This document shows positions 13,641 through 56,415 of a DNA stretch of 64,000 nt, one piece after another (position 1 is the first letter of the stretch; every line of letters begins with the position of its first letter). The notes beneath the pieces are model-generated. The model was not told the origin of the DNA and ran no database searches. It was given only the letters and a program-made list of their open reading frames with translations. The DNA is taken from assembly GCA_963695155.1 (NCBI GenBank), contig CAVOGD010000005.1, positions 964-64,963 of the forward strand, written 5' to 3'. The position numbers and the translations under genes were made by a program. The DNA comes from an uncultured Gammaproteobacteria bacterium (lineage in GTDB: Bacteria > Pseudomonadota > Gammaproteobacteria > Steroidobacterales > Steroidobacteraceae).

Positions 13641-13734
13641 CCGTAGCGGGAGTATTGCAGGCTGGATCAGCGATCGCGCTTCACGGCGCGGCTGCTGGAT
13701 GGCGAGTGGATGACTGCGCTGTATGACCGACCCG

Positions 13735-13795
13735 ATATCGAGAAGTCCGATGGTCGGTCCGTGACGCCGGTGACCGCATGACATTTGAAGGGACC
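13735..13795 (+). repeat. repeat copy A (CGACCCGA-N9-GTCCGATGGTCGG plus GCCGGTGACCGCATGA)
   Basis: Hand alignment to copy C gives 30/37 identical, then 20/22 identical after a 24-nt insertion present only in C. Confidence 0.65.
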
Positions 13796-13907
13796 CTAAG
13801 TGGGTGCAAGACCCATGCCTGTCGGATTCGTCTCCCGAAATGGCCGCCTCTGCCCTGCCAGGTGACCTTCGAACCAGCCGGAACTTGCGTTTGCCGGTTG
13901 TTCTGAT

Positions 13908-13931
13908 AAGATAGTAATTAATTACTATCTT
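13908..13931. promoter_or_regulatory. perfect 24-bp palindrome, candidate TetR operator
   Basis: AAGATAGTAATT|AATTACTATCTT ends 17 nt upstream of the tetR ATG. It lies in an AT-rich stretch unusual for this DNA. Confidence 0.5.
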
Positions 13932-13947
13932 TATTGGGAAGACAGCC

Positions 13948-14556
13948 ATGAGCCAGAAGTCGAGGCATCTCCCTGCCGATCAACGGCGGGACGTCACGGT
14001 GGAGTCCGTGGTTGAACTTGCGGCGACGCGAAATCCCAGCGAGATAACGACCGCGGCCATCGCTACGCACATGAACCTCACGCAGGGCGCAGTGTTTCGT
14101 CACTTCCCCAGCAAGGACGCCATATGGCAGGCAGTCATGAAATGGGTTGCCGACACACTCCTGGCGACAATTGATCGCTCGGTCCAGGGAATTGACTCAC
14201 CGCTCGACGCGATGCAAGCCATGTTCATGGGGCATGTCGAGTTCGTGGTAACCCACCCGGGCGTTCCACGGATTCTGTTCGGTGAACTCCAGCGAGCCGA
14301 GTCGACCCCGGCCAAGCGCGAGGTGCAGACCCTGCTGAAGCGTTATGGAGAACGCCTGCATCAGCTCATTGAAAAAGGAAAGGCCTGCGGTGAACTGGAC
14401 GCCGCGCTCGACAATGAGGCTGCGGCCACGCTGTTCATTGGCACCATGCAAGGCTTGGTCATGCAATCGCTGCTTGCCGGCAACGTGCAACGCATACGCC
14501 GCGATGCGCCACGTGTCTTTGCGATTTATCGGCGTGGAATCGGTGGTGCCCAATGA
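13948..14556 (+). CDS. TetR/AcrR family transcriptional regulator
   Basis: The N-terminal HTH reads ITTAAIATHMNLTQGAVFRHFPSKDAIW. 202 aa. The stop overlaps the next start (ATGA at 14553). Confidence 0.9.
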   Translation: MSQKSRHLPADQRRDVTVESVVELAATRNPSEITTAAIATHMNLTQGAVFRHFPSKDAIWQAVMKWVADTLLATIDRSVQGIDSPLDAMQAMFMGHVEFVVTHPGVPRILFGELQRAESTPAKREVQTLLKRYGERLHQLIEKGKACGELDAALDNEAAATLFIGTMQGLVMQSLLAGNVQRIRRDAPRVFAIYRRGIGGAQ

Positions 14557-15704
14557 CAACTCTGCCGTTGCAAGGCCGAACCCTGGCATTGTTGGCCGTG
14601 ATCGTCCCGCTGCTCGCTCTGTTCGTCTATGTCGCGCTGCGGTCCGGACCGCTGGCGCCAGTTGCGGTCAGCGCCACACTGGTCGAATCGCGGGCGGTCG
14701 CCCCGGCCGCCTTTGGCATAGGTACCGTCGCGGCCCGCTATACGTACAAGATCGGCCCGACCTTTGCCGGGCGCGTGAAGCAAGTGGATGTGCAGGTCGG
14801 CGACCGGGTCAGCGCCGGGCAGGTGCTGGGCGAGATGGATCCGATTGACCTGGACGACCGGATTCGCTCGCAGTCATCGGCGCTCAAGCGCGCGCAGGCT
14901 CTTCTGCGCGAGGCGCAGTCGAGGCACGACCATGCGCAAACCCAGGCGCATCGCTACGAAGAACTCTATGCCGCACGCTTGGTCAGCGAGGAAGCTGCCA
15001 CGACCAGGCAACACGAGCTCAGGATAGCCGATGCCGCCAGGGCGGCCGCTCAGGAGGATCTCGCACGGGCCAGGTCCGATCACGACGGCCTGGTGGCGCA
15101 GAAGAGCAACCTGCGCCTGGTCGCACCGGTCGATGGTGTGGTAGCCGTGCGGCATGCTGACCCGGGCACGACCATCGTCGCTGGCCAGGCAGTGGTGGAA
15201 GTGATTGATCCCAGCAGCCTGTGGATCAATGTGCGTTTCGATCAAGTCAGTGCCGCGGGGATTGCCGCCGACCTCCCTGCGAGCATCGTGCTGCGTTCAC
15301 GCAACGGCCAGGCCATGACGGGTCGCGTGCTGCGTACCGAGCCTGTGGCCGACCCGGTCACCGAGGAGATTCTCGCCAAGGTGGTTTTCGATCAACTACC
15401 GGAGCCGCTACCACCGCTGGGCGAGTTGGCAGAGGTCACGGTTGACTTGCCGCCACTGCCTGCCGCCCCGGTCATTCCAAACGCCGCCGTTCAGCGTGTG
15501 GACGCCGAACTGGGAGTCTGGCAGGTCATAGGCGATGACTTGTTTTTTTCTCCGGTCACTCTGGGTGCTGCAGACTTGACTGGACTGGTGCAAGTTCAGC
15601 AGGGATTGGACGTCGGCGACCGGGTGATCGTTTATAGCGAAAAGGCGTTGAGCGCCCGTAGTCGCATTCACCTGGTCGAACAGCTTCCAGGAGTCAAGCA
15701 GTGA
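14553..15704 (+). CDS. HlyD/DevB-type membrane fusion (periplasmic adaptor) protein
   Basis: 383 aa with an N-terminal TM helix, a coiled-coil (IRSQSSALKRAQALLREAQSRHDHAQTQAHRYEELY), a lipoyl-like motif (VDVQVGDRVSAGQVLGEMD) and a beta-barrel. Confidence 0.85.
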   Translation: MTTLPLQGRTLALLAVIVPLLALFVYVALRSGPLAPVAVSATLVESRAVAPAAFGIGTVAARYTYKIGPTFAGRVKQVDVQVGDRVSAGQVLGEMDPIDLDDRIRSQSSALKRAQALLREAQSRHDHAQTQAHRYEELYAARLVSEEAATTRQHELRIADAARAAAQEDLARARSDHDGLVAQKSNLRLVAPVDGVVAVRHADPGTTIVAGQAVVEVIDPSSLWINVRFDQVSAAGIAADLPASIVLRSRNGQAMTGRVLRTEPVADPVTEEILAKVVFDQLPEPLPPLGELAEVTVDLPPLPAAPVIPNAAVQRVDAELGVWQVIGDDLFFSPVTLGAADLTGLVQVQQGLDVGDRVIVYSEKALSARSRIHLVEQLPGVKQ

Positions 15705-16909
15705 TCAGCCTGGCTGGGCGCGACATCATGCACGCCTGGGGGAAATTCGTCTTTACAGGCGTGGGGCTGGGCCTGTTGATTGGCGTGACCTTGTCAATGG
15801 CGGGCATTTATCGCGGCATGGTGGACGACGGCAAGGCGCTGCTCAGCAATAGCGGTGCTGATCTCTGGGTCGTGCAACAGGACACGCTGGGCCCTTACGC
15901 GGAGTCGTCCAGTGTCAATGACGAAGCGTATCGCGGGATTCTTGCCATGCCAGGAATCGCTCAGGCCGCCAACGTCACCTACCTGACCATGCAGGTGCGC
16001 AAGGGCGAACGCGACGTTCGGGCCATGGTGGTTGGTATTTCGCCCGGCAAGGTAGGAGCGATACCGGGATGGCCGCCCTACCTGGTGGCGGGGCGCCAGG
16101 TCACACGCAGTCACTACGAGGCGGTGGCCGACATTGCCAGCGGCTTTGGCCTCGGAGACCGTATCACCATCCGCCGCAATCAATACCATGTCGTGGGCCT
16201 GACACGTCGCATGGTGTCTTCCAGCGGCGACCCGATGGTCTTCATTCCGCTCAAGGACGCCCAGGAAGCACAGTTCCTCAAGGACAACGATGCCATCTGG
16301 CAGAGTCGCCGTCGCACCGAAGCCAACCCTGCTTTCAACCGGCCCGGCGTGCCCGACCTGCTCGATGCGGTGATCGCATCCCAGAGCACCAATTCGTATG
16401 TCAATGCGGTGCTGGTCAGGTTGCAGCCCGGGTATTCTCCAGACGACGTGGCCGATTCAATTCGCCGCTGGAAGCGCCTGACGGTTTACACCCGGGCACA
16501 AATGGAGGAGATCCTCGTAGGAAAGCTCATTGCCACGTCGTCCAGACAGATCGGCATGTTCCTGGTAATTCTCTCCATTGTCAGCGCCGCAATTGTCGCC
16601 TTCATCATCTATACCCTGACACTAGGCAAGATTCGCGAGATCGCGGTACTCAAGCTGATCGGCACCCGCAATCGCACCATTGCCGGCATGATCATGCAGC
16701 AGGCCATTGCACTCGGTGTGATCGGCTTCGTGGTGGGCAAGATCACCGCCACCTTGTTCATGGCGCCGATCTTTCCGAAGTATGTGCTGCTTGAGCCTGC
16801 CGACTCGGTACGCGGCTTTGCCATAGTCGTAATTATCTGTGTGCTGTCCAGCGTCATTGCGATCCGCGCAGCACTCAAGGTCGATCCGGCCGAGGCCATT
16901 GGTGGATAA
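15701..16909 (+). CDS. ABC transporter permease, FtsX/MacB/DevC-type
   Basis: 402 aa with one TM helix, a large periplasmic domain and three C-terminal TM helices (FtsX-like: IAVLKLIGTRNRTIAGMIMQQAIALGVIGF). The GTG start overlaps the previous stop (GTGA). Confidence 0.85.
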   Translation: MISLAGRDIMHAWGKFVFTGVGLGLLIGVTLSMAGIYRGMVDDGKALLSNSGADLWVVQQDTLGPYAESSSVNDEAYRGILAMPGIAQAANVTYLTMQVRKGERDVRAMVVGISPGKVGAIPGWPPYLVAGRQVTRSHYEAVADIASGFGLGDRITIRRNQYHVVGLTRRMVSSSGDPMVFIPLKDAQEAQFLKDNDAIWQSRRRTEANPAFNRPGVPDLLDAVIASQSTNSYVNAVLVRLQPGYSPDDVADSIRRWKRLTVYTRAQMEEILVGKLIATSSRQIGMFLVILSIVSAAIVAFIIYTLTLGKIREIAVLKLIGTRNRTIAGMIMQQAIALGVIGFVVGKITATLFMAPIFPKYVLLEPADSVRGFAIVVIICVLSSVIAIRAALKVDPAEAIGG

Positions 16910-16910
16910 C

Positions 16911-17621
16911 ATGGCTGGCAAAGGCATCCGAATAGAGGGGCTCAGGAAACGGTATGGCAAGGCCGATACCGCTGTTGATGCACTGAAAGGCGTCGACATG
17001 CAGGTGGCGCCTGGCGAGGTGGTGGGTTTGATCGGGCCCTCCGGCTCCGGCAAGACAACGTTGCTGAAATGTCTGGGGGCCGTCATCGATCCTACTGCCG
17101 GCCGCATGACTCTGGGCGACGAGGAAATTTATAACAATGGCTGGAAGGTGCGTGACCTGCGAGCCTTGCGGCGCGACAAGATCGGTTTCGTGTTCCAGGC
17201 GCCTTACCTGATTCCGTTTCTCGATGTCACGGATAACGTGGCATTGCTGCCGATGCTGGCGGGCTCCTCCAACACAGAGGCGCGAACGAGGGCGCTCGAG
17301 CTTTTCACTGCCCTGGAAGTGCAGCATCGCGCGCGCGCCATGCCCTCACAGCTATCCGGCGGTGAACAGCAACGGGTCGCGATTGCGCGTGGACTGGTCA
17401 ACCGCCCGCCCGTCATCCTGGCGGACGAGCCTACCGCACCGCTCGACAGCGAACGTGCCATGGCGGTTGTCAAGATCCTGAACGACATGGCGCGCAAGTA
17501 CGAAACTGCGATCATTGTTGTTACACACGACGAAAAGATCATTCCTACATTCAAGCGCATTTATCACATTCGTGACGGAGTGACTCATGAAGAGGCCGGC
17601 GAGGGACGAGGGTTCGAATGA
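16911..17621 (+). CDS. ABC transporter ATP-binding protein (DevA/MacB-NBD-like)
   Basis: Walker A GPSGSGKTT, signature LSGGEQQRVAIARG, Walker B VILADEPT. ATG at 16911. Confidence 0.9.
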   Translation: MAGKGIRIEGLRKRYGKADTAVDALKGVDMQVAPGEVVGLIGPSGSGKTTLLKCLGAVIDPTAGRMTLGDEEIYNNGWKVRDLRALRRDKIGFVFQAPYLIPFLDVTDNVALLPMLAGSSNTEARTRALELFTALEVQHRARAMPSQLSGGEQQRVAIARGLVNRPPVILADEPTAPLDSERAMAVVKILNDMARKYETAIIVVTHDEKIIPTFKRIYHIRDGVTHEEAGEGRGFE

Positions 17622-21241: not shown

Positions 21242-21317
<76 letters not shown>

Positions 21318-43339: not shown

Positions 43340-44050
43340 TCAATCGCCGGTCAGCGCGTCGAGCACCAGCCGCACCATGTCGTCCACCCCGGTGGCGCGC
43401 TGCTCCGCCGTCATCTGCTCGTCGTGCAGCAGGTGATCGCTGACCGTCATCACGGCCAGCGCCTCGACGCCCATCTCGGCCGCCAGTGCATACAGCGCCG
43501 CCGCCTCCATCTCGATGGCGAGGACGCCCATCCGCGCCAGCAGCTTCCGCAGCGCCGGGTCCGGGTGATAGAAGATGTCGCTGGAAAAGACGTTGCCGAC
43601 GCGCACTTCACGCTGCCGCGCCTCGGCCTCGCGGGTCACCTTGCGCAGCAGCGGCCAGCTCGCCGTCGCCGGCAGGTCGTAGTCCAGGAAGCGGATGCGG
43701 TTGACGCGCGAGTCGGTGCCGGCACCGAGCGCCACCACGATGTCGCCGACGCCCAGCGATGCGCAGACGGCGCCGCAGGTCCCGACCCGCACCAGGCGCT
43801 TGACGCCGAAGTCGCGCACCAGTTCGGTGGCGTAGATGAGCGTGGACGGGATGCCCATGCCGCCGCCCATCACCGACAGGCGCCGGCCGCGCCAGCTGCC
43901 CGTGTAGCCCAGCATGTTGCGTACGTTGTTGACCTCGACCGAGCCCTCGAGCAGCGTCTCGGCGATGTGCCTGGCGCGCAGCGGGTCGCCCGGCAGCAGC
44001 ACCGTGTCCGCGAAATCGCCCGGCTCGGCGTTGATGTGAGGTGAACTCAT
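43340..44050 (-). CDS. deoD: purine-nucleoside phosphorylase, DeoD type
   Basis: HINAEPGDFADTVLLPGDPLRA, MGGGMGIPS, AIEMEAAALYA. 236 aa. The ATG overlaps the deoB stop. Confidence 0.9.
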   Translation of the reverse strand: MSSPHINAEPGDFADTVLLPGDPLRARHIAETLLEGSVEVNNVRNMLGYTGSWRGRRLSVMGGGMGIPSTLIYATELVRDFGVKRLVRVGTCGAVCASLGVGDIVVALGAGTDSRVNRIRFLDYDLPATASWPLLRKVTREAEARQREVRVGNVFSSDIFYHPDPALRKLLARMGVLAIEMEAAALYALAAEMGVEALAVMTVSDHLLHDEQMTAEQRATGVDDMVRLVLDALTGD

Positions 44051-45327
44051 GCGTTGCTCCGTGTCGCCCGGCCGCCCGCGGGCTGCGGCAGGAAGGACGT
44101 GCCATGGACGAGCGGCGCGATGCCGAACCACTCGGCCAGCGACTGGCCGATGTCGGCGAAGGTCTCGCGCCGGCCTATCGAGCGCGGCGGCAGGGCCGGA
44201 CCGGCGGCCAGCACCGGCACGAACTCGCGGGTGTGGTTCCAGCCCTCCCAGGTCGGGTCGTTGCCGTGGTCCGCGGTCAGCACCAGCAGGTCGTTCACGC
44301 CCAGCCGCCCGAGCAGCGTCTCGAGCATGCCGTCGAACCGCTCCAGCTCGGCCGCGTAGCCGGGCACGTTGCGCCGGTGGCCGTATTCCTGGTCGAAGTC
44401 CACGAGGTTCGTGAACACCAGCGTGCGGTCGCCGGCCTGAAGCAGTGCGCGCTGCGAGGCTTCCATCAGCCCCGCCAGGCCGCTGGCCTTGACGCCATGC
44501 GAGATGCCGCGGCCGGCGAAGATGTCCGGCACCTTGCCCACGCCCACCACGGTGCCGCCTGCGGCGACGAGCCCGTCCAGCACCGTGCCGGCGGGCGGCG
44601 GCACCGAATAGTCGCGGCGATGCGCGGTGCGCCTGAAGTCCCCGGCCGACGTGCCCAGGAACGGCCGGGCGATGACGCGGCCGATGCGCAGTTCGTCCAC
44701 CAGCAAGCGCGCGGCGGCGCATATCTCGTACAGGCGCTCGAGCCCGAAGGCCTCCTCGTGCGCGCAGATCTGCAGCACGGAATCGGCGGAGCAGTACACG
44801 ATCGGCCGGCCGGTCCGCAGGTGTTCCTCGCCCAGTTCCTCGATGATCGTCGTGCCCGACGCATGCCGGTTGCCCAGGAACCCCGCCACGCCGGTACGGC
44901 GCGCGAGCTCGTCGAGCAGCGGTTGCGGCACCGAGTCGGTGAGGCGCGTGAAGTAGCCCCATTCATGCTCGACGGGCTGGCCCGCCATTTCCCAGTGTCC
45001 CGAGATCGTGTCCTTGCCCTTCGACAGCTCGGCCGACCAGCCCCAGGTGCCGGTGGGCGCCTGCGGGGTCGCAAAACCGGCCGGCCGCGCGCCGCGCGCG
45101 CCCGCCGCCGCCTCGACCAGCCCCAGGCGCTGCAGCGTCGGGATGCGCAGCGGCCCGGAACGTCCCTGGTCCGCACGGCCGGCGGCGCAGGCCTCCGCGA
45201 TGTGCCCGAACGTGTCGGCGCCCGCGTCGCCATAGCTGGCGGCGTCGGGCAACGCGCCGATGCCCAGGGAATCCACCACCAGCAGCAAGGCGCGGCGCGG
45301 TGCCCGGTTCGTTTGGGTGTCGCTCAT
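44047..45327 (-). CDS. deoB: phosphopentomutase
   Basis: LLVVDSLGIGALPDAASYGDAGADTFGHI, GKDTISGHWEMAG, LVDFDQEYGHRRN, LTADHGNDPT. Confidence 0.9.
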   Translation of the reverse strand: MSDTQTNRAPRRALLLVVDSLGIGALPDAASYGDAGADTFGHIAEACAAGRADQGRSGPLRIPTLQRLGLVEAAAGARGARPAGFATPQAPTGTWGWSAELSKGKDTISGHWEMAGQPVEHEWGYFTRLTDSVPQPLLDELARRTGVAGFLGNRHASGTTIIEELGEEHLRTGRPIVYCSADSVLQICAHEEAFGLERLYEICAAARLLVDELRIGRVIARPFLGTSAGDFRRTAHRRDYSVPPPAGTVLDGLVAAGGTVVGVGKVPDIFAGRGISHGVKASGLAGLMEASQRALLQAGDRTLVFTNLVDFDQEYGHRRNVPGYAAELERFDGMLETLLGRLGVNDLLVLTADHGNDPTWEGWNHTREFVPVLAAGPALPPRSIGRRETFADIGQSLAEWFGIAPLVHGTSFLPQPAGGRATRSNA

Positions 45328-45339
45328 GCGCCTGTATTA

Positions 45340-46683
<1,344 letters not shown>

Positions 46684-46828
46684 GATGCGGCGGGCCGGCC
46701 CGCCAGCCACCCATGCGTGCGTCGCGGAAATAGCGGCAGGTCGAGAATCACGGTTGGCTCCATGGGGATCCGGCCCACGATACGGCAGGCCCGCGCCACG
46801 TCAAGGACCCACGGCCGTACGCGCGCGC

Positions 46829-47281
46829 TCAACCCGCCGACAGCTTGAAGGCGCAGGGCAGGAGCTCGCCGATGCTCATGCTGCGCAGCCCGGCACCGTG
46901 CCAGGCAAAGTGCACGATCGCGTCCTCGCCGGCCGCGTGCTCGAAGATGCGCTGCCGGCAACCGCCGCAGGGCGAAATCGCGGCCGCCTGGCCCGCCTTG
47001 CCCGCCGCCCAGACCGCGACCTCGGCAATTCGGAATGCGGGGCCTTCGGCCAGCACGCCGGCGGCGATGGCCCCCGCCTCGGCGCAGCTGCCCAGCGGGT
47101 AGGCCGCATTCTCCACGTTGCAACCTGCGTACACGCTGCCCGACGTCGCCAGCACCGCGGCACCCACGTGCAGCCCTGAATACGCGGCATGCGCCTGTGG
47201 GGCGGCGGCCTCCGCCGCGGCCAGCAGCGCTTTGCGCGTGGCCGCCCGGCCGGGCACCAGTGGGAGACGATGGTCGGTCAT
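46829..47281 (-). CDS. cdd: cytidine deaminase
   Basis: Zinc motifs are CAEAGAI and SPCGGCRQ. The start is at MTDHRLPL (47281). Confidence 0.85.
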   Translation of the reverse strand: MTDHRLPLVPGRAATRKALLAAAEAAAPQAHAAYSGLHVGAAVLATSGSVYAGCNVENAAYPLGSCAEAGAIAAGVLAEGPAFRIAEVAVWAAGKAGQAAAISPCGGCRQRIFEHAAGEDAIVHFAWHGAGLRSMSIGELLPCAFKLSAG

Positions 47282-47626
47282 GAGTGGGCGTTTCCGCGAT
47301 CCCGGCACCGGCGCCGGGCGCACACTTTGCCTCCTGCCGATGGCAATGGCCACTGGGTGGGCCACAGGGATCGCTCAATGCGGACATCCTGGACCGGCGC
47401 ATGGACCAAAGATGTGCCAAAATAAGTCGTTACATCAAGGGGTTGTGGTACGTCCGGCGCGGCGCCGATCCTGCCGTCCGACCGCTCGCCACGGACCCGG
47501 GATCGAGGCAGCGCCAGGCAGCGCGGAGGTCTTGCGGTAATTCGCATTGCGCCGGCGGCGATGAACGGTAAATTGGGCGCCCCCCGGCCGGACCGGGGCG
47601 GGTGTCGTTTGCGAGAGAGGGGCAGC

Positions 47627-48520
47627 ATGAGCAGCAAACAGACTGGGGCCGGCTTCGAGATCGTCGCGCGCGAGGACTTCTCGGATGTCACGTACCTGCT
47701 GGAGGTGCACCATCCCGCGATGGCGCGCGCCGCGAAGCCAGGTCAGTTCGTGATCGTGATGTGTCACGAGAACGGCGAGCGCATCCCGCTCACCATCGCC
47801 GACTACGATCGCGCCAGGGGCACCATCACGCTGGTCATCCAGGCGGTCGGCAAGTCCACCCGCGAGATGCAGCAGGACTGCCAGGTCGGCACGAAGCTGT
47901 TCGCACTGGTCGGGCCGATGGGCATCCCGAGCCACATCGGCAAGCCGAAGAAGGTGCTGTGTGTCGGCGGCGGCCTGGGCGTCGCGCCGGTGTTTCCGCA
48001 GGCCCGCGCCTTCAAGGAAGCCGGCGCCTACGTCATCGGCGTGGTCGGGTTCCGCAACAAGGACCTGGTCTTCTGGGAAGACAAGTTCCGCGCCTGCTGC
48101 GACGAGCTGATCGTCTGCACCGATGACGGATCGGCGGGCGTCAAGGGCATGGTGACGGAAGGCATCCGGCTGGCCGTCGAGCGTCACGCCGACATAGACG
48201 AGTGCCTCGCCATCGGCCCGCCGATCATGATGAAGGGCTGCGCCGAGGCGACCCGCCCGCACGGCATCAAGACGATGGTCAGCCTCAATCCCATCATGGT
48301 GGACGGCACCGGCATGTGCGGCGGCTGTCGCGTGAAGATCGGCGAGAGCATCAAGTTCGCCTGCGTGGACGGTCCCGATTTCGACGGCCATACGGTGGAC
48401 TTCGACGACCTGATGGCGCGGCTCAGCCGCTACCAGGCGACCGAGCGCGACGCCTACCAGCGCTGGCAGGACAGCTGCCGCCTGCGCAGCCAGGCCGACG
48501 GCAAGGCCGCCCGCGCCTGA
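47627..48520 (+). CDS. NfnA/SudB/PyrK-like FAD/NAD(P)-binding [2Fe-2S] oxidoreductase subunit
   Basis: FEIVAREDFSDVTYLLEVHHP, RIPLTIADYD, VGGGLGVAPV, and the C-terminal cluster motif GMCGGCRV...FACVDGPDF. Confidence 0.85.
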   Translation: MSSKQTGAGFEIVAREDFSDVTYLLEVHHPAMARAAKPGQFVIVMCHENGERIPLTIADYDRARGTITLVIQAVGKSTREMQQDCQVGTKLFALVGPMGIPSHIGKPKKVLCVGGGLGVAPVFPQARAFKEAGAYVIGVVGFRNKDLVFWEDKFRACCDELIVCTDDGSAGVKGMVTEGIRLAVERHADIDECLAIGPPIMMKGCAEATRPHGIKTMVSLNPIMVDGTGMCGGCRVKIGESIKFACVDGPDFDGHTVDFDDLMARLSRYQATERDAYQRWQDSCRLRSQADGKAARA

Positions 48521-48561
48521 TTCCGCACCCGACGGCATCCTGAACACCAGGCGGTAACCCG

Positions 48562-50112
48562 ATGGCAGTCAAGAAGCGGACGATCCGCACCATTCCCCAG
48601 GAGCGGACCCCCGCGCGCGAGCAGGATCCCGCCGAGCGGGCCAGGAATTTCCGCGAGGTCAACTGCGGCTACACGCCGGAGGACGCGCTGCGCGAGGCCG
48701 AGCGCTGCCTGTACTGCCCCGAGCAGCCCTGCGTGGCCGGCTGCCCGGTCAACATCGACATTCCGGGGTTCATCCAGAGGATCAGCGAGCAGAACTACCG
48801 CGGCGCCTACGACGTCATCACCGACACCAACCTGCTGCCGGCGATCTGCGGGCGCGTCTGCCCGCAGGAGACGCAGTGCGAGAAGGTGTGCACCGTCGGC
48901 GAGGGCAAGCTGGAGCCGGTCGCGATCGGGCGCCTCGAGCGCTGGGTCGGCGACATGGCCATCGCCGAGAACTGGACCAACATTCCCTACATCGAGCCGA
49001 ACGGCCTGCGCGTCGGCATCGTCGGTTCCGGGCCGGCGGGCATGGCCTGCGCAGCCGACATGGCCAAGGCCGGCTGCGACGTCACGGTGTTCGAGGCCTT
49101 CCACGAACCCGGCGGCGTGCTGAAGTACGGCATCCCCGACTTCCGGCTGCCCAACGAGGTGATCGACGCCGAGATCGACAAGCTGGTCAGGCTCGGCATC
49201 CGCTTCGAGTGCAACACGCTGGTGGGCCGGCTGTTCACCATCGAGCAGATGCTGCAGGACATGGGCTTCCATGCCGTGTTCATCGGTACCGGCGCCGGCT
49301 ACCCCAGCTTCATGGGCATCCCGGGCGAGTCGCTGAACGGCGTGCTGTCCGCCAACGAGCTGCTGACCCGCTGCAACCTGATGCGCGGCCGCGACTTCCC
49401 GAACTTCGACACGCCGATCCAGCCGGGCAAGCGGGTCGCCGTGATCGGCGCGGGCAACACGGCAATGGACGCGATGCGCGTCAGCCTGCGGCTCGGCGCC
49501 GAGAAGGTGTACTGCATCTACCGGCGCACCCTCGACGAGGCGCCGGCGCGCGTCGAGGAGATCCACCATGCCGAGGAGGAAGGCGTCGAGTTCCACTGGC
49601 TGACCAGCCCGGTCGAGCTCCTCGACGACGGCAACAAGGGCGTGCGCGGCATGCGCTGCATCAGGATGGAGCTCGGCGCGCCGGACGACTCGGGGCGCCG
49701 CCGGCCGGTGCCGGTCGAGGGCAGCGAGTTCGAGTTCGAGGCCGACATGATCGTCTATGCGATCGGCACCAACGCCAACCCGATCATCGGCCAGACCTCG
49801 GGGCTGAAGCTGAACAAGCGGGGCTACATCGCGGCCGACGAGAACCTCGCGACCTCCATCGCGGGGGTGTACGCGGGCGGCGACATCGTGACCGGCGCCG
49901 CAACCGTCATCGAGGCCATGGGCGCCGGCCGCAGGGCGGCGCGCGCGATGAAGGACTGGCTCGGGCTGCGCGACACCGAGGTCGTCTACCGCGACCCGCC
50001 GGAAGGCCCGGTTGACCGGCCGTTCGGCTTCGATCCGTCGGAGCACGACTTCGCACTGGTGAGGATCCCGGCGCCAGCCGCCGCACAGCAGACCGGGGGC
50101 ACGCCGGCCTGA
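48562..50112 (+). CDS. GltD/NfnB-like NAD(P)H-dependent FAD oxidoreductase subunit (glutamate synthase small chain family)
   Basis: Fe-S Cys motifs are CLYCPEQPCVAGCP and CGRVCPQETQCEKVC. Dinucleotide folds are VGIVGSGPAGMACA and VAVIGAGNTAMD. GVYAGGD is present. Confidence 0.88.
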   Translation: MAVKKRTIRTIPQERTPAREQDPAERARNFREVNCGYTPEDALREAERCLYCPEQPCVAGCPVNIDIPGFIQRISEQNYRGAYDVITDTNLLPAICGRVCPQETQCEKVCTVGEGKLEPVAIGRLERWVGDMAIAENWTNIPYIEPNGLRVGIVGSGPAGMACAADMAKAGCDVTVFEAFHEPGGVLKYGIPDFRLPNEVIDAEIDKLVRLGIRFECNTLVGRLFTIEQMLQDMGFHAVFIGTGAGYPSFMGIPGESLNGVLSANELLTRCNLMRGRDFPNFDTPIQPGKRVAVIGAGNTAMDAMRVSLRLGAEKVYCIYRRTLDEAPARVEEIHHAEEEGVEFHWLTSPVELLDDGNKGVRGMRCIRMELGAPDDSGRRRPVPVEGSEFEFEADMIVYAIGTNANPIIGQTSGLKLNKRGYIAADENLATSIAGVYAGGDIVTGAATVIEAMGAGRRAARAMKDWLGLRDTEVVYRDPPEGPVDRPFGFDPSEHDFALVRIPAPAAAQQTGGTPA

Positions 50113-50132
50113 GGCCGCGCGGCAAGGACATC

Positions 50133-52061
50133 ATGACCACCAAGCAAGCGACCAGGCCCACGAAGAAGCCAGCTGCCCCGGCGGCAGCCGCGCCCGCCAC
50201 CAGGCAGGCGATCGTGCTCAACGAGCATGTCGTCGAGATCATCAGCGATTCCGGCGAGGGCGCGCAGCGCTGCGGCCAGTCGTTCGGCTCGATCGCCGCA
50301 CGCATGGGCAACGGCGTGTGGACCGTCGAGATCATCCCTGCGGAGATCCAGCCGCCCGCGCGCAGCGTGGCCGGCGCCAGCGGCAACCGCATCCGGCTCG
50401 GCACCGGCGCGGTCACCAACGGCGGCGACGAGGCCGACCTGGTGATCGCCTTCAACGAGCAGGTGCTGCTGGGGCGCGTGCGCGACGGCGAGCTCAAGCC
50501 GGGCTGCCTGATCCTGCTGGAGGGCATGTGGCGCGAGCACCGCGACGCCGGGATCCGCGCCATGTTCACCGGAACGGTGGACCAGCTGATCGCCGACGGC
50601 TACCGGGTCGTCGAGGTGCCGATGGAAAAGCAGTGCCTGCAGATCGTCACCGATGCCAGGCGCGGCAAGAACATGTTCGCGCTCGGCATGCTGTGCAGCA
50701 TCTACAGCCTCGACACGGACCTCGGCCGCTCGCAGATCGCGTACACGTTCCGCAAGAAGGGCGCCAAGGTCATCAAGCCCAACCAGGACCTGTTCGACGC
50801 CGGTTACGCGTGGGCCGAGGCCAACCTCGACCTCAAGTTCAGCATTCCGGCGAGCCAGGTGTCCGAGCCGCAGATCGTGGTCAACGGCAACACCGCGCTG
50901 GCGCTCGGCGTGCTCGCATCGGGCATGGAAATCTGCGCGATGTACCCGATCACGCCCGCCACGTCCGTGTCCCACTACCTGAGCGACGTGTTCGAGAAGG
51001 TGGGCGGCATCGTGCACCAGGCCGAGGACGAGATCGCCGCGGCCACCTTCGCGATCGGCGCCTCGTACGCGGGCAACGTCGCGGTCACGGTGACCTCCGG
51101 GCCCGGCTATTCGCTCAAGCAGGAGGCGATCGGCCTGGCGGTGATGGCCGAGATCCCGCTGGTCGTCATCAACGTGCAGCGCGGCGGCCCCAGCACCGGC
51201 CAGCCGACCAAGGCCGAGCAGGGCGACCTGCTGACCACGGTGTACGGCAGCCACGGCGACGCGCCCAAGGTCGTGATGGCGGCTTCCAGCATCGAGGACT
51301 GCTTCTACTCGGTCATCACGGCGCGCAAGATCGCCGAGACCTTCAACATGGTCGTGGTCGTGCTGTCCGACGCGGCGCTCGCCACCGCGCAGACGCTGTT
51401 CCCGCGGCCGCAGTTCAGCGAAGCCTGGCTCGCACCGCCGCTCGACCAGAGCCCCGTCCCGGCGGGCGCCAAGCCCTACGACTGGGACGAGCACACCGGT
51501 CTGTTCCGCCGCTTCGTGCCGGGCCAGGCCGGCGGCATGCACACGCTGACCGGGCTGGCGCACGACCGCGCCAGCAAGGTCGCCTACGACCCGGTCAACA
51601 ACGAGGAAGGCCTGCGCCGCCGCAGCCTGAAGCTGGCGGCGCTGCAGAAGACGCTGACCACGCCGGCGGTCTTCGGCGACGAGGACGGCGACCTGCTGAT
51701 CGTCGGCTGGGGCAGCACCAAGGGCGCGATCGAGGAAGCGGTCACGCGGCTGCGCGCCGAGGGCCACAAGGTGTCCTCGCTGCACCTCACGTTCATCCAG
51801 CCGATGCCGAGCGGAATCCGCCAGATCCTCAAGCGGTTCGACCGCGTGATGACGGTGGAGAACAACTGGTCGGATACGACGCAGGACCAGATCATCGACG
51901 AGGACAACCGGCGCTACTCCGCGCTCGCCCTGATGCTGCGCGGCAGGTTCCTCGCGGACGTCGACTGCTGGACCGAATCACGCGGCCGGCCGCTCACGCC
52001 CGGCGCCATCTGCCGCGCGGTCCGTCCGCGCCTGGCCGGCCAGAAGGGGAAAGCGGCATGA
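50133..52061 (+). CDS. korA: 2-oxoacid:acceptor (ferredoxin) oxidoreductase subunit alpha
   Basis: 642 aa with fused gamma-like and alpha domains (ISDSGEGAQRCGQSFG; NGNTALALGVLASGMEICAMYPITPAT; VNVQRGGPSTGQPTK). Confidence 0.9.
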   Translation: MTTKQATRPTKKPAAPAAAAPATRQAIVLNEHVVEIISDSGEGAQRCGQSFGSIAARMGNGVWTVEIIPAEIQPPARSVAGASGNRIRLGTGAVTNGGDEADLVIAFNEQVLLGRVRDGELKPGCLILLEGMWREHRDAGIRAMFTGTVDQLIADGYRVVEVPMEKQCLQIVTDARRGKNMFALGMLCSIYSLDTDLGRSQIAYTFRKKGAKVIKPNQDLFDAGYAWAEANLDLKFSIPASQVSEPQIVVNGNTALALGVLASGMEICAMYPITPATSVSHYLSDVFEKVGGIVHQAEDEIAAATFAIGASYAGNVAVTVTSGPGYSLKQEAIGLAVMAEIPLVVINVQRGGPSTGQPTKAEQGDLLTTVYGSHGDAPKVVMAASSIEDCFYSVITARKIAETFNMVVVVLSDAALATAQTLFPRPQFSEAWLAPPLDQSPVPAGAKPYDWDEHTGLFRRFVPGQAGGMHTLTGLAHDRASKVAYDPVNNEEGLRRRSLKLAALQKTLTTPAVFGDEDGDLLIVGWGSTKGAIEEAVTRLRAEGHKVSSLHLTFIQPMPSGIRQILKRFDRVMTVENNWSDTTQDQIIDEDNRRYSALALMLRGRFLADVDCWTESRGRPLTPGAICRAVRPRLAGQKGKAA

Positions 52062-53062
52062 AGACCACGGGCGCCAAGACCAGCGATTGCCTCGTCAAGC
52101 TGTACGAGGAGCGCCGCCAGCTGGAGGACTACCAGGGCGGCGTGCCGCGCTGGTGCAGCGGCTGCGGCGACAGCGCCATCCTGACCGCGGTGCAGCGGCT
52201 GTGCCGCGACGAGGGGCTGCGCCCCGAGAAGAGCGTGTTCGTGTCGGGCATCGGCTGCTCGAGCCGCCTGCCGCACTACATGAAGACCTACGGTTTCCAC
52301 GGCATCCACGGCCGCGCGCTGCCGATCGCGCAGGGCGTCAAGATGGCGCGCCCGGACCTGCACGTGTTCGTGAGCACCGGCGACGGCGACAACTGCAGCA
52401 TCGGCGCCGCGCACTGGATCCACGCGATCCGCTACAACATGAACATGACCATGATGCTGCACGACAACCACATCTACGGGCTCACCAAGAAGCAGGCGTC
52501 GCCGACCTCGCCGATCGGCCTGAAGAGCAACACGACCCCGCGCGGCGCCTACCTGGACGCGCTCAACCCGCTGACGGTGACGCTGGGGATACAGAACGTC
52601 TCGTTCGTCGCGCAGGCGGTGGACTGGATCCCGGAACTGCTGTCCGACATCATCTCGCGGGCGTTTCGCCACAAGGGCTTCTCGTTCGTGCGCATCATCC
52701 AGCGCTGTCCGGAGTTCCTGCCCAAGATGTTCGACGCCTGGCTGCAGGACACGCAGCGCACGCTGCTGGTCACGCACGAGAACGGCATCAGGCCGAGCGC
52801 GGCGATCGGCCAGTTGTACCGCAACCAGATCCAGCACGACCCGTCGGACATCGACCGGGCGCGCGAGATCGCCTCGGGACTCGACCCGATCCCGGTGGGC
52901 ATCCTGTACCACAACCCCGCCGTGCCCTGTTACGAGGACATTCGCAACGCCGGGCAGCTGCGCACGCCCGAGATGATCAAGGCCGGGCTCGAGTCCGAAT
53001 TCGACAAGTTCACCGTCTGGCCGGAAGGCCACCCGCAGGCGCAGGTCTCTCCAGCATCATGA
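52058..53062 (+). CDS. korB: 2-oxoacid:ferredoxin oxidoreductase subunit beta (TPP-binding)
   Basis: RWCSGCGDSAIL, GIGCSSR, GDGDNCSIGAAH, HDNHIYGLTKKQASPT. The ATG overlaps the korA stop. Confidence 0.9.
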   Translation: MKTTGAKTSDCLVKLYEERRQLEDYQGGVPRWCSGCGDSAILTAVQRLCRDEGLRPEKSVFVSGIGCSSRLPHYMKTYGFHGIHGRALPIAQGVKMARPDLHVFVSTGDGDNCSIGAAHWIHAIRYNMNMTMMLHDNHIYGLTKKQASPTSPIGLKSNTTPRGAYLDALNPLTVTLGIQNVSFVAQAVDWIPELLSDIISRAFRHKGFSFVRIIQRCPEFLPKMFDAWLQDTQRTLLVTHENGIRPSAAIGQLYRNQIQHDPSDIDRAREIASGLDPIPVGILYHNPAVPCYEDIRNAGQLRTPEMIKAGLESEFDKFTVWPEGHPQAQVSPAS

Positions 53063-55302
53063 ATGCCAACCTCCAGCAACAGACCGTCTTCCACCTGACC
53101 GGCAGGCGGCCGGCGGAATCCCTGGAGCCGCTGTCCGGACGGCAGCTGCGCCCGGCACTGGTCGCGCGTTATCGCGACCTGACGCGCCTGCGTTACGACT
53201 TCCCGGTGGTGCTGGTCAGCGGCGCGCAAGACGCGCCTTTCGTCCGCTCGCTGACCGAGATCGTCAACGCCTTCCTGCGCGCGAACGCCGCGCCGGGCCC
53301 GGATGGCGAGGGGCTGCGCAAGCACGTCATGCGCGTCGAGCGCGAGATCCGCCGCGACCTGGCGGCCGGCAAGCGCGGCCGCCTGTCGGAATTGTGGCCC
53401 CGTGCCGCGCTGCGCCTGGCGGAGCACGCCGACGCGGCGCTGGCCGAAGCACTGGAACATGCCGGCAGTTCGCTGGGCGTGGACGGCGAGCTGCTGGACT
53501 GCGGCGAGGACATGCCGGCCGCGGTGCTGGAGCACGCGTGGCGCCGCGTGCAGGACGCACGGGCCCGCGACGCACGCGTCGAGATCAATGCGCTGATCGT
53601 GCGCCTCAACGACATCCTGCGGGTCGATTACGCCAACTCGGAGGCCGGCCGCACGCCCGACAGTCTCGGCAGGTCGGTCGGCACCAAGCAGGCCGGCATG
53701 TTCGACTTCGAAATGATGTCGCGCATCCTCGCGCTGGGCTCGCCGGTGCGGCGCCTTTCCGACAGCCGCCGTGCGCGCATCGACGACGCACTCGCGGTGA
53801 TGCGTTCGCAGCGCTTCTTCCCGGTGGTGACCACGGGCAGCGAGGCGGTCCAGCCGTTCGGCTTCGTCTTCGACTCCTGTCGCGAGGCGCTGCAGGAGTA
53901 CTCGAATCGCCTGCCGCTGATGGCGGAGCTCGTCAGGGCGATGTCCATCGCCGCACTCGAGGCGGACGGCCGCTACGTCGAGGCCAAGCACGACCCGCTG
54001 TTCGCGGACAGCGACCCGGATTCGCTGCGGGCGCAGGACCTGGCGATGTTCCCCGACTACCTCGTGTGCCTGCGGCGCCGCGAGCACGGCGTCGCGGCCG
54101 ACGCGCCCTTGATGGAGCTGCTGTCCTCCGGCATGCCGGCCAAGGTGCTGGTGCAGGTGGACGACATCCTCGAGGAAGCCTCGCTGGGCCAGGGCCGCTT
54201 CCCCTTCGGCATGCGCAGCGTGCAGCTGGCCAGCACCGCCATCGGGCTGACCGAGACCTTCGTGCTGCAATCGAGCAGCTCGAACCTGCTGCAGTTGCGC
54301 GACCGCATCCGCGCCGGCATGGAGCACGCGGGCTCCGCGCTGTTCAGCGTCTTCTCCGGCAGCGCGGCCGGCGGCGACGGCCTGCCCGCCTACCTGGTGA
54401 GCGCCGCGGCGATGCAGTCGCGCGCGTTCCCGGCCTTCACGTACGATCCCGGCACGGGCACCGACCTCGCCTCGCGTTTCTGCCTCGAGCACAACCCGCA
54501 GGCCGAGGCCGCGTGGCCGGTGACCTCGTTCGAGTACGCCGACGCGGACCTGCAGCGCATCACCGGGCCGCTGGCTTTCACGCTGGCCGACTTCATCGCC
54601 TGCGACCCGCGCCACGCAAGGCATTTCGCGCTGGTGCCCCAGGGGGCCTGGAACGAAGCGATGATGCCGGTGGCCGAGTGGCTGTCCCGGGATACGGACG
54701 AGCCCGACGGCAAGGTGCCTTACCTGCTGGCCGTGGACGAGGCCAACGTCCTGCACCGCATCATCGTCGACGACAAGATCATCCAGGCCGCACGGCGTTG
54801 CGGCGAGAACTGGCGCCGGCTGCAGGAACTGGGCGGCATCAACAACTCCTATGCCGAGCGCCTGCTGGCCCGCGAGAAGGCCCTGTGGGAAGAGGCCAGG
54901 CAGAAGGAAATCGCGGCGCTGTCAGGCGCCCGGGCGCAGCCCGCGGCAGCCGAGGCATCGCCGGCGGCCGACGCAGAGCCGGCCGCGACCCCCGCAGAGC
55001 CAGCGCCGGCCGCCGCAGAGCCGGCGCCGGCCGTCGAGGAAGCCGCGCGCTCGCCCGACGAGCCGTACATCGAGACCATCCGCTGCTCGTCGTGCAACGA
55101 GTGCACGAACATCAACGACGCGATGTTCAAGTACAACGACGACCAGCAGGCCTACGTCGCCGACCTGAAGGCCGGCACCTACCGGCAGATGGTCGAGGCC
55201 GCGGAGAGCTGCCAGCTCGCCATCATCCATCCGGGCAAGCCCTGGAACCCGAAGGAGCCCGGCCTCGAGGACCTGCTCAAGCGCGCGGCGACTTTCGACT
55301 GA
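53059..55302 (+). CDS. 747-aa uncharacterised protein with C-terminal single-cluster ferredoxin domain
   Basis: The ATG overlaps the korB stop (ATGA at 53059-53062). Codon usage matches neighbours over 2.2 kb. The ~640-aa N-terminal region has no recognised motif. It is followed by an Ala/Pro/Glu linker and then PYIETIRCSSCNECTNINDAMFKY...MVEAAESCQLAIIHPG (CxxCxxC...C). Confidence 0.75.
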   Translation: MNANLQQQTVFHLTGRRPAESLEPLSGRQLRPALVARYRDLTRLRYDFPVVLVSGAQDAPFVRSLTEIVNAFLRANAAPGPDGEGLRKHVMRVEREIRRDLAAGKRGRLSELWPRAALRLAEHADAALAEALEHAGSSLGVDGELLDCGEDMPAAVLEHAWRRVQDARARDARVEINALIVRLNDILRVDYANSEAGRTPDSLGRSVGTKQAGMFDFEMMSRILALGSPVRRLSDSRRARIDDALAVMRSQRFFPVVTTGSEAVQPFGFVFDSCREALQEYSNRLPLMAELVRAMSIAALEADGRYVEAKHDPLFADSDPDSLRAQDLAMFPDYLVCLRRREHGVAADAPLMELLSSGMPAKVLVQVDDILEEASLGQGRFPFGMRSVQLASTAIGLTETFVLQSSSSNLLQLRDRIRAGMEHAGSALFSVFSGSAAGGDGLPAYLVSAAAMQSRAFPAFTYDPGTGTDLASRFCLEHNPQAEAAWPVTSFEYADADLQRITGPLAFTLADFIACDPRHARHFALVPQGAWNEAMMPVAEWLSRDTDEPDGKVPYLLAVDEANVLHRIIVDDKIIQAARRCGENWRRLQELGGINNSYAERLLAREKALWEEARQKEIAALSGARAQPAAAEASPAADAEPAATPAEPAPAAAEPAPAVEEAARSPDEPYIETIRCSSCNECTNINDAMFKYNDDQQAYVADLKAGTYRQMVEAAESCQLAIIHPGKPWNPKEPGLEDLLKRAATFD
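54973..55035 (+). repeat. 3 x 21-nt in-frame tandem repeat (GCAGAGCCNGCNCCNGCCNNC) encoding AEPAxxx
   Basis: Units start at 54973, 54994 and 55015. They translate as AEPAATP / AEPAPAA / AEPAPAV. Confidence 0.7.
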
Positions 55303-55317: not shown

Positions 55318-56415
55318 GTGAGCGGCATGACGGACGGCGGGGCGCGGGGCGATTCGGCGACGCCGGCCGGACGGTCGCCGACCGGGCCGGTACGCGAGGA
55401 GCACCGCTTCGACGAGGCCGCCCTGCTGCGCTGGCTGCAGGCGCACCTGCCCGGCTTCGAAGGCCCGCTCGAACTGCTGCAGTTCGACGCGGGGCAGTCC
55501 AACCCGACCTTCCTGCTTCGCGCCGCGTCGGGCCAGTACGTGCTGCGCAAGCAGCCGCCCGGCAAGCTGGTCGCCTCCGCCCACTCGATGGACCGCGAGT
55601 ACCGCGTGCTGTCGGCGCTGGCCGGCAGCGACGTGCCGGTACCCATGGCGCTCGCGTACTGCGACGACCCGGCGCAGATCGGCACGCAGTTCTACGTCAT
55701 GGAGTACGTGCCGGGTCCGGTCTTTCACGACCCGTTGCTGCCGGGAGCGACGCCCGCGCAGCGCGCGGCCCTGTATGACTCGATGAATGCCGCGCTCGCG
55801 GCGCTGCACTCGGTGGACTGGCGCGGCGCGGGCCTGGACGGCTTCGGGCGCCCCGACCACTACGTCGAGCGGCAGGTCGCCCGCTGGGGCAAGCAGAACG
55901 ACGCGCTGGGCAGCGCCGACGCCGGCCCGCTGACCGCGCTGCGCGCGTGGCTCGAGGCCCACCTGCCCGACGACGAGCCGGCCGCCATCGCGCACGGCGA
56001 CTATCGCATGGGCAACATGATCTGCGCGCTGGACCGGCCGCGCGTCGTGGCCATCCTGGACTGGGAACTCGCGACCATCGGCCATCCGCTCGCCGACCTG
56101 GCCTATTGCTGCATGGCCTACGATTTCCCGGCCGGCCACGCCGTCTCGAAGGGCTTCGCGGGCGCCGACCTGGCCGAACTGGGGATTCCCGCCGAGGACG
56201 ACTTCGTGGCCGCCTACGCGCGTCGAACCGGGCGCGACGAGGTGCCCCACTGGCGCTTCTTCAAGGCTTTCAGCCTGTACCGCATGGCGTCCATCCAGCG
56301 CGGCGTATACGCGCGCGCGCTGGCCGGCAATGCCAGTTCGACGATGGCGCACCTGTTCGGCGAGAGCTGGCGCATGGTCGCCGAGGCCGGTCATGCCGTG
56401 ATCGCCGGGCGCTGA
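55318..56415 (+). CDS. phosphotransferase (APH/ChoK-like kinase fold) family protein
   Basis: LELLQFDAGQSNPTFLLRAASGQYVLRKQPPG, FYVMEYVPG, the catalytic loop IAHGDYRMGNMI, and ILDWELATIGHPLADL. Confidence 0.8.
   Translation: MSGMTDGGARGDSATPAGRSPTGPVREEHRFDEAALLRWLQAHLPGFEGPLELLQFDAGQSNPTFLLRAASGQYVLRKQPPGKLVASAHSMDREYRVLSALAGSDVPVPMALAYCDDPAQIGTQFYVMEYVPGPVFHDPLLPGATPAQRAALYDSMNAALAALHSVDWRGAGLDGFGRPDHYVERQVARWGKQNDALGSADAGPLTALRAWLEAHLPDDEPAAIAHGDYRMGNMICALDRPRVVAILDWELATIGHPLADLAYCCMAYDFPAGHAVSKGFAGADLAELGIPAEDDFVAAYARRTGRDEVPHWRFFKAFSLYRMASIQRGVYARALAGNASSTMAHLFGESWRMVAEAGHAVIAGR

Follow-up and report, generated by a model that had tools for sequence, protein, structure and literature searches.

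Two-subunit 2-oxoacid:ferredoxin oxidoreductases (OFORs) need a low-potential partner, and how electrons are supplied to or drained from these enzymes in non-fermentative proteobacteria is poorly known. This question is raised by a locus at positions 47627-55302 of a 64,000-nucleotide stretch of DNA (hereafter the window; contig CAVOGD010000005.1, positions 964 to 64,963) from an uncultured gammaproteobacterium of the family Steroidobacteraceae, in which korA- and korB-like genes for such an oxidoreductase are packed, all on the plus strand, between a pair of genes resembling nfnA and nfnB and a fifth gene whose product ends in a ferredoxin domain. The locus is a candidate answer, i.e. a private, tethered ferredoxin plugged into an Nfn-type bifurcating flavoprotein, and we hold with moderate confidence that its five genes make up one redox module providing a reversible electron path between 2-oxoacids and NAD(P)H through the tethered ferredoxin. 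The genes, designated A to E, and the products predicted for them are the following:

47627-48520, plus strand: gene A, 297 aa, NfnA-type small subunit, PyrK-like, with flavin adenine dinucleotide (FAD) and a [2Fe-2S] cluster with Asp(Cys)3 ligands
48562-50112, plus strand: gene B, 516 aa, NfnB-type large subunit, GltD-like, with two [4Fe-4S] clusters, FAD and an NADPH site
50133-52061, plus strand: gene C, 642 aa, KorA, gamma+alpha fusion of a two-subunit 2-oxoacid:acceptor oxidoreductase
52058-53062, plus strand: gene D, 334 aa, KorB, beta subunit, with thiamine pyrophosphate (TPP) and a single [4Fe-4S] cluster
53059-55302, plus strand: gene E, 747 aa, ferredoxin-fusion protein

A fixed five-gene arrangement

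A preliminary description of this DNA had pointed to five same-strand genes with two ATGA overlaps, and the list of open reading frames (ORFs) together with the junction sequences reproduced its coordinates: A and B are spaced by 41 nt, B and C by 20 nt, and C/D and D/E each by -4 nt, the ATGA start/stop overlaps lying exactly at 52058-52061 and 53059-53062. The start of gene A is placed at the ATG at 47627, since homology to the small subunit of Pyrococcus furiosus NfnI (NfnI-S) runs from residue 10 and an AGGGG ribosome-binding site precedes this codon. G+C content is about 70% across the operon region and many long spurious ORFs overlap there; the five genes were chosen among them because homology backs them, and the domain descriptions first given for all five products agree with the Pfam and NCBIfam assignments.

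A scan of one genome per species retrieved 581 genomes with a relative of protein E, the best 80 loci of which were compared, a locus being taken as complete if its contig extends more than 5.7 kb upstream of E. The order A-B-C-D-E on one strand occurs in 54 of 54 complete loci, and the 26 loci cut by a contig end are all consistent with it, an arrangement that is far beyond chance. Median identity to the window proteins is 73-78% for A-D and 50% for E; a survey of gene neighbourhoods, proposed in the preliminary description, found the order conserved throughout the 80 loci, and a further, metagenomic locus (L084) whose E protein is only 36% identical keeps it as well. The hosts are mostly metagenome-assembled genomes of Beta- and Gammaproteobacteria (Burkholderiales, Casimicrobiaceae, Rhodoferax, Propionivibrio, Steroidobacteraceae, Nevskiaceae and Rhodanobacteraceae), and genomes with an E relative, at least 581 at species level, come mostly from soil, groundwater and wastewater.

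More distant relatives indicate which of these associations is the constant one. In five such loci (L081, L082, L083, L085 and L086) gene E directly follows korB; in four of them an RnfB-like gene (PF04060 plus a dicluster ferredoxin), sometimes trailed by further PorA-like genes, follows E and no nfnAB stands beside it, the fifth, L085, being a short contig that covers the korB-E junction only. Since E is found after korB with or without nfnAB, the constant pairing is that of korAB with E, and the partner on the NAD(P)H side is lineage-specific, nfnAB here and RnfB-like genes elsewhere, with the partner gene always adjacent. The position of E next to differing partners argues for its being a KorAB-side adaptor to the ferredoxin-dependent partner of each lineage. 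The distant E homologues are 756-1,460 aa long (L081 8001-13262; L082 3027-6960; L083; L086 2949-11180), and L086 also encodes a 712-aa KorB+POR_N fusion, with H+-PPase and cytochrome bd genes nearby.

These comparisons bear on an explanation by co-regulation without wiring, in which KorAB with E on the one side and NfnAB on the other would be independent low-oxygen enzymes sharing a soluble ferredoxin pool, the ferredoxin of E serving KorAB alone or an activity of E itself. Wherever NfnAB has been studied it is indeed a free-standing enzyme (PMC8097209), and the occurrence of E after korAB without nfnAB in other lineages would fit the same explanation. It would leave unexplained, however, an nfnA-nfnB-korA-korB-E order that is invariant in 80/80 loci over wide divergence, with short gaps or overlaps, as well as the placement of another ferredoxin-type Fe-S protein directly after E in the lineages devoid of nfnAB; a clade-specific conserved tail of NfnB, described below, also suggests adaptation to a partner. 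We therefore regard independent enzymes as distinctly improbable and return to the five genes as a single module.

A two-subunit oxidoreductase that lacks its own ferredoxin domain

Genes C and D are predicted to encode a two-subunit 2-oxoacid:acceptor oxidoreductase. The product of gene C combines the Pfam domains POR, POR_N and PFOR_II, scores 512.5 bits with TIGR03710 (cut-off 482.75), carries the YPITP motif at residue 271 and finds its best solved relative in the alpha chain of the Magnetococcus 2-oxoglutarate:ferredoxin oxidoreductase (OGOR; 6n2n_A, 269 bits). That of gene D contains TPP_enzyme_C and PFO_beta_C, with GDGD at residue 108 and HDN downstream of it, and Cys 33/36/67/217 as ligands for one [4Fe-4S] cluster; it scores 179 bits with the beta subunit of StOFOR2 (5b46_B) and 178 bits with that of MmOGOR, and 244.6 with TIGR02177, slightly under the cut-off of 261.9. 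Pfam detects no Fer4 domain in either protein, and thus no delta ferredoxin domain. The closest solved relatives of the pair are the Magnetococcus enzyme (6n2n) and the Sulfurisphaera OFORs. Its substrate is probably 2-oxoglutarate, and 'Kor' would then be a reasonable name; weak NCBIfam matches to the phenylglyoxylate:NAD+ oxidoreductase models NF045764 and NF045766 (E 4e-13 and 1e-3) are far under the cut-offs.

A ferredoxin tethered to a probable pseudo-enzyme scaffold

The ferredoxin domain missing from KorAB is found at the end of the fifth protein, in which four regions can be distinguished:

53059..53865, plus strand: E residues 1-269, all-helical N-terminal region with a confident AlphaFold2 (AF2) model, mean predicted local distance difference test (pLDDT) 90
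53866..54933, plus strand: E residues 270-625, putative, diverged module resembling domain VI of pyruvate:ferredoxin oxidoreductase (PFOR) and OFOR beta subunits, of the pyrophosphate-binding (PP) fold
54934..55059, plus strand: E residues 626-667, variable Ala/Pro/Glu-rich flexible linker
55060..55302, plus strand: E residues 668-747 and stop codon, single-[4Fe-4S] ferredoxin domain (C676, C679, C682, C718)

Fer4_13 (PF13370) is the sole Pfam domain of E (residues 673-724; 27.4 against a cut-off of 24.5), and NCBIfam has no match anywhere in the protein. By sequence the domain resembles Desulfovibrio africanus ferredoxin I (1dax/1fxr; 1dax_A at E 6e-5 with the family profile), and so it does by fold (1fxr_A, TM-score relative to the target (TMt) 0.81, root-mean-square deviation 1.4 Å). 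Among 95 homologues C676, C682 and C718 are present in all and C679 in 94, and this is the best-conserved region of E, with a median identity of 66% versus 39-43% elsewhere in the protein. The preceding linker is the least conserved region, ranging from 26 to 62 residues (median 39) in the same homologues with 32% Ala, 17% Pro and 12% Glu, and its pLDDT falls below 50 at residues 630-655; such a composition together with a variable length characterises a flexible tether. The preliminary description had proposed a tethered ferredoxin on the fifth protein, and a conserved CxxCxxC…C domain on a disordered Ala/Pro-rich arm is what we find.

The AF2 model of the whole protein, built with the 95 homologues (pLDDT 90, predicted TM-score 0.80), comprises a helical part from residue 1 to about 330, an alpha/beta part from about 330 to 570, two long helices at 572-625, the disordered stretch at 630-655 and the compact ferredoxin. 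When this model was submitted to Foldseek, single-chain PFORs filled the first 18 places (probability 1.0). With residues 270-625 modelled separately (pLDDT 87), the top 27 PDB matches were all OFOR-family chains, the best being PFOR 7plm_A (E 6.9e-6, probability 1.0, TM-score relative to the query (TMq) 0.45), with 1b0p_A at TMq 0.41, other PFORs (6ci*, 2c3y) and the beta subunits of oxalate oxidoreductase, Methanosarcina acetivorans PFOR, StOFOR and MmOGOR also among them; the PP domains of other thiamine diphosphate (ThDP) enzymes came after the OFOR chains in this ranking.

The cofactor motifs that would accompany such a fold in an active enzyme are missing. At E positions 340-344, equivalent to the TPP motif GDG-X(24-27)-N, residues are variable across the 95 homologues, and the GDG that the window protein has at residue 439 is inside a non-conserved loop. 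No Cys ligands of the proximal cluster are conserved in the family, its 840-aa and 1,236-1,460-aa forms included: outside the ferredoxin the only conserved Cys are C148 (89/95) and C581 (66/95), neither of them at a ligand position. The possibility that E is an active TPP enzyme was rejected because these motifs are absent across the whole family. Sequence comparison adds little, since the first 660 residues find nothing in Pfam, in NCBIfam, by phmmer against the PDB or by hmmsearch against the PDB with family profiles, and hhalign of the E family with the KorB and KorA alignments from the loci gives non-significant probabilities of 0.5% and 0.1%, the E-KorB alignment falling in the register predicted by the fold match. 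A likeness seen by eye between 'SRAFPAFTYDP' of E and 'SGYWPLFRYDP' of D. africanus PFOR is a lead only. Some long forms of the family are extended at the N terminus by a degenerate, PorA-like stretch containing PFOR_II. From a PFOR-like fold devoid of TPP and cluster motifs we conclude that the modelled core of E is likely a cofactor-less, highly diverged PFOR domain-VI-like pseudo-enzyme scaffold. In the helical region ahead of it R45, P49, L65 and R240 are invariant.

The E family is large, with at least 1,957 matches in a 90%-clustered collection and, among 50%-identity representatives, 2,133 clusters (885 at E ≤ 1e-30). Its members are publicly named 'hypothetical protein' or 'ferredoxin' only; the prospect, raised in the preliminary description, that the fifth protein might belong to a characterised family unrelated to electron transfer has not materialised, no such family being found in Pfam, NCBIfam or the public names. 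In the transcriptomes of a Riftia symbiont a 'PFOR-like' gene changes expression together with a dimeric korAB isoform (PMC11636981); it may be a relative of E.

An NfnAB-type flavoprotein pair

On the NAD(P)H side, the small subunit of Nfn enzymes holds its [2Fe-2S] cluster by an Asp(Cys)3 set, and the large subunit has two [4Fe-4S] clusters, a Glu being among the ligands of one (PMC8097209). Protein A scores 383 bits with the SudB-like model NF004862 and contains PF10418 (DHODB_Fe-S_bind); the Asp(Cys)3 ligand pattern is present and the motif VDGTGMCGGCRV…FACVDGP is conserved. Compared with solved structures, it reaches 324 bits with P. furiosus NfnI-S (5jca_S) and 262 bits with Thermotoga maritima NfnA (4ylf_A), against 168 bits with the small subunit of the non-bifurcating NfnII (5vj7_B) and 68 bits only with PyrK. 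Protein B is made of Fer4_20 and Pyr_redox_2 domains with eight N-terminal Cys, and scores 576 bits with T. maritima NfnB (4ylf_B) over residues 14-467, versus 284 bits with the glutamate synthase subunit GltD (6s6s_G); Cys 49/52/57/61, Cys 96/100/106/110 and the Glu of CPQE provide its ligands. Because of these scores and of the presence of all cluster ligands, A and B are predicted to be NfnAB orthologues and not generic GltD/PyrK proteins.

Protein B continues past residues 467-468, where its alignment to solved Nfn large subunits stops, in a C-terminal tail of about 40 residues (LGLRDT…FG…EH…ARVR, about residues 468-505, within residues 468-516; window 49963-50112) that is conserved in the related loci. 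This tail may be a docking peptide, and its restriction to the clade suggests that it reflects adaptation of NfnB to its partner.

Whether the pair bifurcates electrons is a further step, and similarity puts bifurcation or confurcation by A/B on the table. With the same wiring and no bifurcation, A/B would be a simple NADPH:ferredoxin reductase like NfnII, and the module a plain 2-oxoacid:NADP+ oxidoreductase functionally equal to KGOR, the NADP+-reducing enzyme of Azoarcus evansii. The large subunit scarcely discriminates between the two, given that B nearly ties NfnI-L (488 bits) and NfnII-L (464 bits), and for NADP+ reduction by a KGOR that has a GltD-like subunit there is an established precedent. 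The small subunit, which holds the NAD site, is by contrast far nearer to the bifurcating NfnI-S and NfnA than to NfnII-S. Moreover, 19 of the 80 loci contain another korA-korB pair, divergent from the first (27-36% identical) and in most cases with a GltD-like gene 5' of it, and in some genomes a KGOR-sized three-gene set adjoins the module: in locus L010, which was examined in detail, a GltD-like protein of 626 aa, a KorA of 624 aa and a KorB of 351 aa are encoded at 12495-17369, within 10 kb of the five genes, sizes that match those of the three-subunit A. evansii enzyme. The coexistence of such sets with the module speaks against redundancy between the two systems. A non-bifurcating reductase is an unlikely explanation, and a coupling of the Nfn type is retained for what follows.

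Probable low-oxygen expression in relatives

A TTGAT-N4-ATCAA box of the FNR/CRP family precedes gene A in 14 of 55 loci at no more than one mismatch, versus 0.2 expected, and in 40 of 55 at no more than two, versus 2.4 expected, the boxes clustering at -117 to -146 from the start codon. Read with the known consensus, this distribution suggests that in most relatives the operon is induced at low oxygen through an FNR-type regulator.

How the module might work

On these grounds the following mechanism can be proposed. KorAB would interconvert 2-oxoacid and CoA with acyl-CoA and CO2, without the electron relay that four-subunit OFORs and PFOR have in their delta ferredoxin domain. Its dedicated carrier would be protein E, bearing a one-electron [4Fe-4S] cluster on an Ala/Pro-rich arm of about 40 residues; the dead PFOR-like scaffold of E would dock on the enzyme, and its ferredoxin would carry electrons one at a time from the cluster of KorB to the [4Fe-4S] chain of NfnB or back. 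NfnAB would couple two ferredoxin-level electrons and NADH to the reduction of two NADP+, or the reverse, most likely by flavin-based confurcation/bifurcation, the net reaction being 2-oxoacid + CoA + NADH + 2 NADP+ ⇄ acyl-CoA + CO2 + NAD+ + 2 NADPH. Complex formation, the electron route, bifurcation, the substrate and the direction are all what we infer from the combined evidence.

Several observations weigh against this mechanism or against the limits that we set to the module. P. furiosus NfnII is a close homologue of NfnI, and yet it is non-bifurcating (5vj7; PMC8097209). No equivalog, i.e. substrate-specific, NCBIfam model reaches its cut-off for C or D, which are matched by subfamily models only. 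Residues 1-269 of E have no match in Pfam, NCBIfam, PDB sequences or the fold search, and the PFOR kinship of the core comes from the fold search only, with TMq at most 0.45. In the window an unrelated gene encoding an APH-family phosphotransferase (55318-56415, plus strand) begins 15 nt past the stop codon of E, the scan finding no terminator-like site between them, and the window's own 300 nt upstream of gene A (47327-47626) contain no FNR-type box within 3 mismatches.

The direction of the flow deserves separate consideration. Run reductively, NfnAB would bifurcate NADPH and reduce the tethered ferredoxin, driving KorAB as a 2-oxoacid synthase for CO2 fixation or for the anaplerotic supply of 2-oxoglutarate or pyruvate under oxygen limitation, a proposal that differs in direction alone and leaves the wiring set out above unchanged. 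The closest solved relative of KorAB is the 2-oxoglutarate synthase of the reductive tricarboxylic acid (rTCA) cycle of Magnetococcus (6n2n), Nfn is reversible (PMC8097209), and the FNR-type boxes of the relatives point to low-oxygen expression, all of which would suit a synthase. On the other hand, sequence fixes no direction and the window has no other rTCA marker gene near the operon. The Azoarcus precedent, moreover, reportedly runs oxidatively. A reductive role is in our judgement rather unlikely, though the best placed of the alternatives considered here.

Beyond a module of cooperating enzymes, it is tempting to speculate that the five proteins form one supercomplex, in which a swinging-arm ferredoxin couples the 2-oxoacid half-reaction to bifurcation without free ferredoxin; we put this forward tentatively, as an extension whose chances we rate somewhat below even. 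If true, it would be an undescribed class of bifurcating/confurcating enzyme, which under oxygen limitation could turn 2-oxoacid oxidation and NADH into 2 NADPH in facultative Beta- and Gammaproteobacteria or, alternatively, allow reductive carboxylation driven from NADPH alone.

Boundaries and surroundings of the operon

The conserved unit can be delimited by its surroundings. Upstream, on the minus strand and divergent from the operon, lies a nucleoside-salvage cluster (43340-47365; cdd/deoA/deoB) encoding, as judged by the translations, cytidine deaminase, thymidine phosphorylase, phosphopentomutase and purine nucleoside phosphorylase; downstream are the APH-family kinase gene and genes for an acyl-CoA dehydrogenase, a short-chain dehydrogenase/reductase and an AMP-ligase. 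None of these flanking genes adjoins the module in the related loci compared, so that the conserved unit extends from the start of gene A to the stop of gene E. The APH-family gene may be co-transcribed with the operon in this genome; it was rejected as a member of the module, as were the deo genes, because neither is conserved beside it. The region that separates the salvage cluster from gene A is

47366..47626, plus strand: intergenic, presumed promoter region, 5' of gene A and divergent from the cdd/deo genes

and a promoter scan found no sigma-70-like site on its plus strand.

Farther away, a tRNA-Phe (GAA) gene (21242-21317, minus strand) stands exactly where G+C content steps up from 0.61-0.65 to values of about 0.70 or above. 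The part with the lower G+C (window 1-22000) holds genes for a B12-binding radical SAM/DUF4070 protein, an AMP-binding/ApeI-like protein, an HlyD/MacB efflux pair and a HAMP-GGDEF protein, and may be a genomic island inserted at the tRNA-Phe gene.

Comparison with known systems

The literature searched contains no description of an nfnAB-korAB-E operon, of the E family or of a pseudo-PFOR scaffold with a tethered ferredoxin. If confirmed, the module would represent a new architecture among systems of flavin-based electron bifurcation, and a large family, uncharacterised so far and with more than 2,000 clusters at 50% identity, would acquire a function. The core of E would then illustrate how a PFOR domain can be reused, as a pseudo-enzyme, for scaffolding; models of NADPH supply, and of possible CO2 fixation, in these environmentally abundant bacteria under hypoxia would change as well.

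A close functional counterpart is the KGOR of A. evansii and Aromatoleum, whose A. evansii form reportedly has subunits of 63, 62 and 37 kDa. In both systems a KorAB-type OFOR is combined with an Fe-S flavoprotein of the GltD family, through which the oxidation of 2-oxoacids can be linked to NADP+, and the choice of the Azoarcus KorABC as a partial precedent in the preliminary description was apt; a KGOR-sized set adjoins the module in some related loci. KGOR has, however, one GltD-like subunit of about 63 kDa and neither a PyrK/NfnA-like subunit nor an E-like protein, whereas the NADP-linked partner is here of the 516-aa NfnB type with a separate NfnA. The assignment of the module to the Azoarcus KorABC type was accordingly rejected, since the subunit set differs and a KGOR-sized paralogous set stands next door; this coexistence makes the five-gene module a distinct paralogous system. 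The passage on KGOR in PMC10134865 cites Ebenau-Jehle et al. 2003 for that enzyme.

With characterised Nfn enzymes the module shares proteins A and B, which align end to end at 262-576 bits and have the ligand sets for a [2Fe-2S] and two [4Fe-4S] clusters. Those enzymes are free-standing and use soluble ferredoxin, whereas the genes of the present pair share a fixed operon with those of an OFOR and of a ferredoxin fusion, and its large subunit has the additional conserved tail. The OGOR of Magnetococcus marinus (6n2n) and the OFORs of Sulfurisphaera tokodaii (5b46/5b48) resemble KorAB in their gamma+alpha chain, in a beta subunit with one [4Fe-4S] cluster and TPP and in the lack of delta; they rely on separate small ferredoxins, whereas in the module a gene for a 747-residue ferredoxin fusion always overlaps or abuts korB.

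Single-chain PFORs (D. africanus 1b0p, Moorella thermoacetica 6cin, 7plm) share with E the domain-VI PP-fold predicted for residues 270-625 and a ferredoxin-type domain of their own, and long E relatives have the PFOR_II-containing extension. Unlike PFOR, E lacks the GDG…N TPP motif, the proximal-cluster Cys and any detectable sequence similarity, and where PFOR has the internal, two-cluster domain V, E has a ferredoxin with one cluster, placed at the C terminus behind a flexible linker. In the phenylglyoxylate:NAD+ oxidoreductase PadEFGHI of A. evansii an OFOR core with ferredoxin-like and flavoprotein subunits reduces NAD+; its subunit families and substrate are others and it has no E-like protein, the similarity being at the generic OFOR level. 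By analogy, the lipoyl swinging arms of the E2 component of 2-oxoacid dehydrogenases also present a small carrier that is held to a structural core by an Ala/Pro-rich linker and visits several sites, whereas the carrier in E is a [4Fe-4S] ferredoxin and there is no homology. Already known are NAD(P)-linked OFORs, two-subunit OFORs, NfnAB and the PFORs that contain a ferredoxin domain of their own; what this wholly computational comparison adds as not described in the literature searched are the fixed five-gene operon, the E family and the idea of a pseudo-PFOR holding a tethered ferredoxin.

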